64,000 nt of DNA from positions 32,001-96,000 of the forward strand of contig CBDUKN010000004.1 of NCBI GenBank assembly GCA_965367815.1, read 5' to 3'. Made by a program: the position numbers and the translations under genes. The notes under the pieces were generated by a model. The model was not told the DNA's origin. It saw only the letters and a list, made by a program, of their open reading frames with translations, and did not search any database. Source of the DNA: an uncultured Thermoprotei archaeon (lineage in GTDB: Archaea; Thermoproteota; Thermoprotei; Thermofilales; B15-G2). Each line of letters begins with the position of its first letter. Position 1 is the stretch's first letter. Positions 43,072 through 45,115 of the stretch are shown here, in pieces.

Positions 43072-43332
43072 TTGATGGAGGACTACGATAAACTTTACCT
43101 CATTCGAGTATTTACAGGAGTAGCTGTAGGAGTAGTCTGCGGTATACTATCGCTGAACTTACTCTACGGAGCTGGACTATCGATTATCGTGTACTACGTG
43201 TCTCACAAGATCTCTAAGAAAATATATAAAGGGGAAAAACCCTGGGCAGTAGGCCTTGGCGAATACATAGGACTCTGGATAACACTTTGGTGTATAGTCT
43301 ACAGCCTGCTCTACTGGAAGCCGTCTATTTGA
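43072..43332 (+). CDS. Small 3-TM protein, EMC6/Rab5ip-like
   Basis: R...G...G..CG.L, G.....Y, GL..Y...W...W...Y.L pattern. Confidence 0.6.
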
Positions 43333-44039
43333 CATACAACAGAACGCCCCACTGAATCTGAAAATACTACTTTATTCTCTTCTTCCCTGAAAAACACTAT
43401 CTTAGAGAACCTCTTGAAGAAAATATTTCCTAGTCTAGGTTCGCGTATAAAAAAGAAGACAACAGCAACATTTTTCTCGAAAGCTATATGAACAGACTTT
43501 AAGTAAAGCTTAGCAATATTAGAGAGAATATTAAGTGACGATTTGCCTAAACTTAGCTCATATGATATAACATTATCGAGTGAAGAAATTAAAAGAATTT
43601 TAAAATCTTTATTAAAAAGGTCTTCAATTAGTAGAATGAGCGAAGATAGCGAGCGTGCTCTAGCGTAAATGATGTTTTTCAACACACTTTTAACATCTAT
43701 GCCTCTATCCTTAGCTAGCTGAACTATTCTCTCAGGTCTAAATGCACCCTCAGTATCGATACAGACTGCCTTAGCGCACGAGTCTTCTTCTTTGAACATC
43801 AGTTGAACTACAAAGCACAGCCAGTGCAATAGTAGACTTTTGATACGGCTGCTTTCTCCGACGAATTCTGTTACTGCTTGTGTTTCTATTCCTCCTCCGA
43901 GGAGTTCGTCTAGTGCTTTACATCCTGTTGAAATGTATTGAACCTTCTGCCTCTTACTCCAGTACTCTTCAGCAGTAATAAACCTAATACCAAGAAGCGC
44001 TGCTAGAGATTTTAAGGGATTAACTGTTTCTAAGTCCAC
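43311..44039 (-). CDS. RadA paralog lacking the N-terminal domain, with degenerate Walker A/B
   Basis: 48 codons identical to radA, then GESSRIKS for [33 protein letters not shown] for VDSL. Confidence 0.75.
43855..43998. repeat. 144-bp exact direct repeat, copy 1 (in RadA paralog)
   Basis: Identical to 44680..44823 (offset 825 bp), compared by eye. Confidence 0.92.
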
Positions 44040-44057
44040 ATAAAAAGTACTCTGACT

Positions 44058-44999
44058 CTATATATCTACAATGCCCTCTTCTGTTATCATGAATACTGCC
44101 TCTGATTCGGGGTGTTTTGGGGAGTCAAAAATCTTAGCGATTCTTCTGCCATCCTTACTTTTTCTTAGCCATATTCTGTAAGTGCATCCATGGGCTACTA
44201 CGTGGCCGCCAGCGGGTCTAGTTGAATCTCCGAAGAATGCTTCTGGGTTTGCTAGTACTTGGTTTGTTACTACTACTGCTAGGTTGTATACGTCTGCTAG
44301 TTTAATGAGCTGGTGTACATGCCTATTAAGCTTCTGCTGCCTAACAGCCAAATTCTCCCTACCAGGATACTCTGCTCTAAAGTGACTTATCAGGCTGTCT
44401 ACTACAATGAGCTTTATGTTTTCTTTCGGCACCAAGTCCTTAAGCTCATCTACCAGCAACATTTGGTGGTCGCTGCTGTATGCTCTAGCATAAATAATGT
44501 TTTTCAGTGCTTGCTTCGGGTCAAGACCCCTATACGAGGCTATTTGTATTATTCTTTCTGGCCGGAATGTTCCCTCGGTATCTATGTATACTGCTTTAGC
44601 ATTAAGTCCTCCTTTGTCATAGGGTAATTGAACCATTACACATAACTGGTGACACAACTGAGTCTTACCAGCACCAAACTCTCCGACGAATTCTGTTACT
44701 GCTTGTGTTTCTATTCCTCCTCCGAGGAGTTCGTCTAGTGCTTTACATCCTGTTGAAATGTATTGAACCTTCTGCCTCTTACTCCAGTACTCTTCAGCAG
44801 TAATAAACCTAATACCAAGAAGCTCTCTGGCGGCTTGTGCTATTTTTGCAGCCCTGTCTTCGCTTATACCGAGTACTTCTGCGAGTACTCTCGCTGGAGT
44901 TACTGCTATAGACTCTACTGTAGTAAACCCCGCCTCTTTAAGTTTCTGTGCGGTAGCTTTCCCCACTCCTCTTATTTCAGTAATTTCGTGTTCAGTCAT
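44058..44999 (-). CDS. radA: DNA repair and recombination protein RadA
   Basis: HhH N-domain [37 protein letters not shown]...FR.EY.GR..LA.RQQKL. Confidence 0.98.
44680..44823. repeat. 144-bp exact direct repeat, copy 2 (in radA)
   Basis: Identical to 43855..43998. Confidence 0.92.
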
Positions 45000-45115
45000 A
45001 TTTCCTAAGTAAATGTCGTCTGCAGTGGGATATTTATAAATGTCTTAGAGGTGACTGAAAGTATTCTTTGCTATAGTGAAAGTAAAAGTTAACTGGATCG
45101 GCGCGGATTCTTTTT

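Follow-up and report, generated by a model that had tools for sequence, protein, structure and literature searches.

A truncated RadA paralog in an uncultured Thermoprotei archaeon: evidence for segmental gene conversion with the neighbouring RadA-type gene

RadA is the core recombinase of the archaea and a much-used phylogenetic marker. The window, a stretch of 64,000 nucleotides from an uncultured Thermoprotei archaeon of vent origin, carries a RadA-type recombinase gene, designated U in the following, and directly behind it a gene for a truncated RadA paralog, designated D. Comparisons within the window and across related genomes show that gene conversion acts on one segment of this pair, that the pair is old, that D is under constraint and that it has lost its ATPase and DNA-loop motifs. 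From the analysis as a whole we infer that D is a non-catalytic RadA-binding subunit. An old pair under conversion, with a D that is still selected and most likely has this function, is probably the correct explanation of the locus.

Results

Organization of the gene pair

U and D are co-directional, and D starts 18 nt past the stop codon of U (Table 1). The short spacer between them is T-rich and contains TATA-like strings, which might be read as promoter elements. Sequence reading of its 18 nt revealed no clear ribosome-binding site for the GTG start codon of D. The TATA-box-like element in front of U is likewise a putative one. In the window the pair is accompanied by NFACT, an EMC6-like gene, a wHTH gene and a CBS gene, and the EMC6-like gene overlaps the last 22 nt of D. 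Its product is a two-helix membrane protein (Pfam EMC6, E 0.003). The gene is convergent to D across the order (window, L009, L010, L011, L134, L135) and serves as a marker of U-D synteny.

Table 1. Positions of the features of the U-D locus in the window.
Feature	Position	Strand	Basis
U, short-form gene of a RadA-type recombinase (313 aa)	44058..44999	-	ORF, Pfam, NCBIfam
D, RadA paralog, truncated (242 aa, starts with GTG)	43311..44039	-	ORF, BLASTP, Pfam, AF2, Foldseek
Island copy in U, codons 59-107 (...VTEFVGE)	44680..44826	-	Repeat search
Island copy in D, codons 14-62	43855..44001	-	Repeat search
Spacer, 18 nt, U stop to D GTG	44040..44057	-	Sequence reading
Gene of a small membrane protein (matches EMC6 weakly), convergent with D	43072..43332	+	ORF, Pfam
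TTTATAAATA, putative TATA-box-like element, about 32-41 nt upstream of the U ATG	45031..45040	-	Sequence reading
Identity with the final 77 nt of contig C13, which holds the long radA 5' part; start of a tract common to U and the long radA	44610..44686	-	
Identity with the initial 77 nt of contig C28, which holds the long radA 3' part; end of a second common tract	44231..44307	-	

BLASTP aligned D with U over 144 aa at 65% identity (E 1e-61). The two genes share a direct repeat of 147 nt, termed the island, with one mismatch, an exact run of 144 nt and a spacing of 825, and the frame is equal in both copies. This is the repeat ending at Walker A that the initial annotation had described. Outside the island the codon-aligned nucleotide identity of U and D drops abruptly to 23–77%, and the identity profile shows a step from 100% to 20–60%. 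Of the approximately 32 synonymous sites of the island none differs apart from the third position of its final codon. In contrast, the 78 codons following the island yielded a pS of 0.95 and a pN of 0.32 with a third-position identity of 33%. Since pS is about 0 in the island and 0.95 in the adjacent part, selection at the protein level cannot explain the identity of the island.

Properties of U and D

U possesses the HhH N-terminal domain, the FxxA motif (FITA, residues 65–68), intact Walker A and Walker B motifs, L1 and L2. Pfam matched it to Rad51 with 316 bits and to HHH_5. The scores against the RadA equivalogs NF003301 and TIGR02236 were 495.7 and 483 bits, above the respective cut-offs of 259 and 361. 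Between the window and the closely related strain of the metagenome contig L134 an ω of 0.05 was obtained for U.

The D protein has 13–14 residues ahead of the island and hence no HhH domain. Its Walker A motif reads GESSRIKS and its Walker B motif ILLISS where U has LIVVDS, the Asp being lost. L1 is replaced, and L2 carries a deletion of 12 residues. The Walker B Asp is absent from D in both species of the genus, and in the D protein of strain L134 the invariant Lys of the P-loop is changed to Arg. The motifs of the D protein encoded in the window read as the initial annotation had described them. Only positions 1–170 of the 244 positions of the Pfam Rad51 profile are covered by D, and the protein is devoid of a zinc ribbon.

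In the profile comparisons D is nearest to RadA, yet by curated cut-offs it belongs neither to RadA nor to RadB or the KaiC-type proteins. The RadA equivalogs NF003301 and TIGR02236 gave 127.1 and 119.2 bits, below the cut-offs of 259 and 361, and the RadA motifs (HhH, Walker A GxxxxGK[ST], Walker B hhhhD, L1, L2) likewise place D outside RadA. The score was 44.3 bits for RadB (TIGR02237, cut-off 172.4) and 19.1 bits for aRadC and related KaiC-type profiles (TIGR03881 and similar, cut-off about 248), in accordance with the earlier view that D is unlike either of them. When a profile of the D family was compared to PDB structures, RadA was again the nearest match with 233 bits, followed by RadB with 133 bits. 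An assignment of D as the iRadA of a PolB2 operon was considered and rejected because no family-B polymerase gene is near and the zinc ribbon is missing: PF00136 matches in the genome are located on contig C9 and at C4:6239-7429, and the nearest of these genes, the latter, is about 69 kb away from the locus.

The AF2 model of D has a mean pLDDT of 72.5, with values of 87–95 for the core over residues 70–200 and values under 55 for the last 40 residues and the P-loop region (P-loop under 50). The best Foldseek matches of the model were Rad51, Dmc1 and RadA with a probability of 1.00 and E of about 1e-12. RAD51-paralog capping complexes were matched as well, again with E of about 1e-12. The model thus predicts a RecA-like core fold for D. 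Predictions of a complex of U and D with alignments as input gave scores of 0.00, 0.43 and 0.36, and the control in which chain 1 was replaced gave 0.34, so that the scores speak neither for nor against binding.

Gene conversion between U and D

Forty relatives of the same order were screened. In 13 of them a U-like and a D-like match were present within about 1 kb, which makes 14 tandems together with the window. A direct repeat with an exact tract of at least 100 nt was found in all 14. Twelve of these repeats are 96–100% identical across 102–294 nt; the other two are 84–88% identical with exact runs of 107–109 nt. The comparison set of six single-gene loci gave no repeat. The 12 tandems with an island at or near 100% are spread over eight families of the order. 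Consequently, frequent conversion over a long time is needed.

At the strain level, the island of the window differs from that of L134 by six substitutions, and all six occur at matching positions in U and D. The two island copies of L134 are identical at 147 of 147 positions. In a tree of the C-terminal halves every tandem D falls outside a clade of U and long RadA (support 93/93). The D of the window is located on a long branch and is the sister of the D of its congener (100/99). In contrast, a tree of the N-terminal core (residues 82–168 of the window U) unites the U and D that occur together in one genome, and does so for 10 of the 12 genomes. The grouping of the N-terminal core by genome and of the C-terminal half by gene shows an old duplication with concerted evolution restricted to a segment. 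The observations made on the 14 tandems, the two trees and the six co-varying substitutions support recent and recurrent gene conversion; the initial annotation had postulated recent or recurrent conversion. It is such ongoing conversion between U and D, and not mis-assembly, that maintains the repeat, a case of segmental concerted evolution.

Gene conversion between tandem paralogs is well known as a process. For radA and a paralog in tandem with it, the literature searched (subscription journals were outside its scope) yielded no report of such conversion, and neither did passages of a 2025 RadA phylogeny (PMC12722695).

Position of the island and the FxxA motif

FxxA is the interface motif of Rad51 and RadA, as known from work on Rad51 and BRC4. 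The position of the island was mapped in the numbering of the window U for 12 genomes including the window. In the window the island includes FxxA and ends at Walker A. In the 11 other mapped genomes it lies between residues 74 and 179, with FxxA outside in all 11 and at least part of Walker A inside in 10. The sister species (contig L135) has an island of 352 nt from U nt 174 to 524, which spans FxxA and Walker A and continues up to NIIYARAY. In both species of the genus the 5' edge of the island equals the start of the U/D homology at U nt 174; therefore, a selective explanation of this edge is not needed. The initial annotation had stated that the identity is confined to the polymerisation motif and that the interface is thereby kept matched. 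The first statement is correct for the species of the window, but it does not apply to the 11 other mapped genomes, where FxxA is outside, or to the sister species, where the identity continues through Walker A. The second is supported only in part, FxxA being inside the island in both species of the genus. Since most relatives have an island without FxxA, the matching of the interface is not a general rule.

The following sequence of events is the most probable explanation of these data. U and D are an old tandem pair of the RadA family, D having arisen before the order diversified, with a C-terminal half of D that is its own and evolves fast. Homologous gene conversion between the neighbours repeatedly replaces a segment towards the N-terminus of the ATPase core, and this stretch is identical within each genome while drifting between genomes. 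As the homology starts at U nt 174 in the genus, D bears the FxxA polymerisation motif of U. In the lineage of the window the tract has shrunk at its 3' side to 147 nt, by which the P-loop region became free to diverge. The released part, P-loop included, has diverged and left D without a working ATPase. D is still selected and retains a predicted RecA-like core, the FxxA donor motif and the putative residues of the FxxA pocket. Most likely it docks via the filament interface formed by FxxA and its pocket on U or on the long RadA and, much like Rad51 paralogs, serves there as a cap, spacer or mediator without catalysis of its own.

Conversion might also be real but neutral, the identity merely inviting more conversion, while the function of D is independent of the matched interface of U. 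This explanation is possible, if on the whole unlikely, and it is the most serious competitor. It agrees with an island position that varies between genomes, with a 5' edge that in either species of the genus lies where the homology begins, with islands that in 5 of 13 genomes tie U and D to the dispersed long radA as well, and with the location of the island in the most conserved part of the RadA family. The island may persist by inertia alone. On the other side stand the islands at or near 100% in so many families and the retention in D of FxxA and of the residues which we take to line the FxxA pocket as in the Rad51 structure; both would still be compatible with neutrality.

A more far-reaching proposal is a conversion network of long RadA, U and D that is driven by RadA itself, in which the position of the tract sets the filament face that D has in common with its partner. 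In the species of the window D would be an ATPase-dead FxxA protomer that caps or poisons filaments of U or RadA in a BRC-like manner, matched by conversion. We regard this as doubtful. The BRC repeats of BRCA2 mimic the Rad51 interface by means of their FxxA. Like them D presents an FxxA, identical to that of the adjoining recombinase, but D is a whole RecA-fold protein and not a peptide repeat. If the proposal were true, D would be a protein-sized analogue of a BRC repeat that is kept matched to its target by conversion.

Constraint on D

The post-island part of D was compared between the window and L134. There are 13 nonsynonymous and 11 synonymous differences, corresponding to an ω of 0.32 (binomial p = 0.008 versus neutrality). 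This ω is about six times that of U; for NFACT beside D the value is 0.28. The partial SNP list (40 of 85) from four metagenomes holds 7 nonsynonymous and 6 synonymous changes for D, not significant by themselves, and 1 and 11 for U. No indels in D were reported in the Logan contigs of the four metagenome runs. The window, L134, L135 and G001 all have an uninterrupted frame for D, and the indels in it are shared. The diverged part of D is 43% identical between the two species of the genus, in which the flanking proteins are 49–62% identical. For the D orthologs of the window genome (G000) and G001 dS is saturated for dN/dS. In other genera the C-terminal part of D has an ω of 0.07–0.25, and certain D orthologs there bear N-terminal domains of their own. 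The ω of 0.32, the open frames in two species and the low ω in other genera together show that D is a maintained gene under constraint, less constrained than U. The D family is an unnamed family which occurs across the order and is under selection.

Alternatively, D could be a relic in decay, whether as a gene end that was displaced or duplicated and is being lost, or as the former 3' part of radA that an insertion moved downstream. The loss of Walker A and B, the exchange of the invariant Lys for Arg in L134, the deletion in L2 and the long branch of D are what such decay would produce. We consider it improbable in view of the significant dN/dS result, of a frame that stays open in two species whose neighbouring proteins have diverged so far, and of the constrained orthologs in other genera, a few with N-terminal domains of their own. 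The paralog is neither absent nor decaying in relatives, the outcome that the initial annotation had named as a refutation of its reading.

Assembly of the locus and the long radA

The genome (G000) consists of 37 contigs with 2.45 Mb and encodes several RadA proteins. The canonical long radA lies in two pieces, one at the end of contig C13 and the other where contig C28 starts. The ends of both contigs overlap the window by 77 nt, typical of k-mer overlaps at a graph branch, and hence the radA region is repeat-tangled. The genes egsA and UDG next to the C13 and C28 ends are single-copy; thus the long radA of C13 and C28 belongs to the same genome. By frame arithmetic, reading it through the common tracts predicts an uninterrupted ORF of about 361 aa. 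Judged from the 2198-nt metagenome contig L136, the tract common to the long radA and U from Walker A on comprises about 139 nt, and a second tract, reaching NPEAFF, comprises 142–144 nt in L136. A continuous identity of 456 nt between U and the long radA (44231-44686) was dropped because G000 shows only the two 77-nt overlaps. In L136 the two tracts are parted by a distinct middle of the long type, which was probably a short edge lost from the G000 assembly. The dispersed long radA shares tracts of 93–100% with U and/or D in 5 of the 13 genomes compared, all of one family. That D lies downstream of a radA, as first annotated, is correct regarding the adjacency, but U is not the sole radA of the genome, which has the long RadA and two distant full-length copies as well.

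Logan contigs (k = 31) of four vent or sediment metagenomes were placed on the locus. Contigs of this k-mer size can neither phase the island copies nor reveal an 825-bp deletion junction, and their depths are not copy numbers. No RNA run containing the locus was found. In all four metagenomes the contigs run from the U 3' end through the spacer and the unique D 5' end as far as 30 nt into the island, and in all four they also connect the upstream part of U with the island. The transition from the D body into the island was spanned in two of the four and that from the U core in at least one. Island contigs had about twofold depth in X3 and X4, a hint only since depth does not equal copy number. 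L134, a metagenome contig of 112 kb, contains the same tandem and neighbours from a strain with a 93% identical D, and L135, a metagenome contig of 169 kb, contains them from the sister species.

An assembly artefact, with the repeat arising from a de Bruijn path that is chimeric or collapsed, is therefore very improbable. Such an artefact is suggested by the exact 77-nt overlaps of the C13 and C28 ends, by the seemingly chimeric L136 and by the sister genome G001, which is broken at these genes. All unique junctions, however, are present in independent metagenomes, L134 and L135 are long contigs with the same tandem, and 13 relatives share the architecture. Mis-assembly, which the initial annotation had foreseen as a possible refutation, was not found.

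L136 itself starts with the genes upstream of U and the first 462 nt of U and continues with a core and tail of the long radA type and egsA. It is probably chimeric; a real recombinant of two radA loci is the alternative. Assemblies through these repeats can accordingly be chimeric. In the short-read assembly G001 the radA-family genes on C12, C88 and C114 (L031, L034, L032) break inside the common tracts. Contig C152 of G001 encodes a protein identical to the long RadA of another genus and looks like bin contamination.

A programmed pop-out that fuses the U 5' part to the dead core of D as a recombination switch is hardly credible. The geometry is as the initial annotation proposed: the repeats are in frame, and a fusion would have 287 aa. 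In the relative G004 the syntenic locus consists of one fused gene whose junction lies at the 3' edge of the island. Against a switch stands that a second canonical radA remains, so that a pop-out would not turn recombination off. The bridging contig had about the depth of the flanks in four runs (a weak hint), and no junction read was seen among the k = 31 contigs, in which one could not show up. The fused gene of G004 (L009, G004:C2:288090-291656) encodes 311 aa, is U-type in its 5' half and D-type in its 3' half, and may equally be a natural pop-out product or a collapsed tandem.

Comparison to known systems

In methanogens, gene conversion between the tandem paralogs mtrA-1 and mtrA-2 has persisted for long times and is restricted to one domain (Wang et al. 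2015, PMC4632066). Within the literature searched they are the nearest published parallel to U and D: an old archaeal tandem duplication in which one domain is homogenised per genome while the rest of the paralog stays distinct. U and D differ in that they belong to the recombinase family itself, that the tract is short (100–352 nt) and shifts its position between lineages, that a third, dispersed copy (the long radA) joins in certain genomes, and that the tract in the window no longer covers the catalytic motif. Contributions of the present analysis are a tract whose position shifts by species, a network of three genes and the co-variation at the strain level.

D resembles the Rad51 paralogs (Rad55-Rad57; BCDX2/CX3, PDB 9svx, 9q29), which are diverged recombinase paralogs of the RecA fold thought to bind filament ends. 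D differs from them by the loss of Walker A and B, by an FxxA segment identical to that of the partner via conversion and by its origin from an independent archaeal duplication; the likeness is one of predicted fold.

With RadB, aRadC (KaiC-type) and the iRadA of PolB2 operons, the last of which is ATPase-dead, D has in common that it is a short RecA-fold protein without HhH domain. Unlike these, it scores far below the RadB and KaiC-type cut-offs, is closest to RadA (127 bits) and has no zinc ribbon.

In this order radA is a small gene family whose members exchange tracts of 100–350 nt and become mosaic genes. This exchange breaks short-read assemblies at radA loci (G001; C13/C28) and may yield chimeric contigs such as L136. 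The species of the window offers a natural ATPase-dead variant with the polymerisation motif of its partner and could serve as a clean test case for the docking of RadA paralogs on filaments.

Further radA-family genes

Two full-length RadA-type genes of G000, C27:18681-19616 (L002) and C13:51715-52644 (L003), are 48% and 45% identical to U and cluster in the C-terminal tree (95/99). The small-protein cassettes around them are alike (wHTH, C2H2 zinc finger), and each includes a neighbour that ends in the same NPWL.VL.KRGR tail. These cassettes may represent a mobile element or an accessory recombination module. Pfam detected no SWIM domain in the small Cys-rich ORF beside the C13 copy.

The canonical long RadA of the order (L005 at the C13 end; L013-L019, L040-L048) has an N-terminal extension of 30–70 residues ahead of HhH. 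This extension is basic at first and then strongly acidic, and it is absent from U.

A search of other genome contigs with the D alignment, the patterns of which are general to all RadA and not specific for D, returned at least 80 loci; 7 of 80 had two RadA-like ORFs. In one of these, on a contig of a Geoarchaeota MAG (L060), a RadA gene is followed 1.2 kb downstream by a paralog of 259 aa, and both share a tract of 132 nt with 93% identity. This hints at partial conversion between RadA paralogs outside this order as well.
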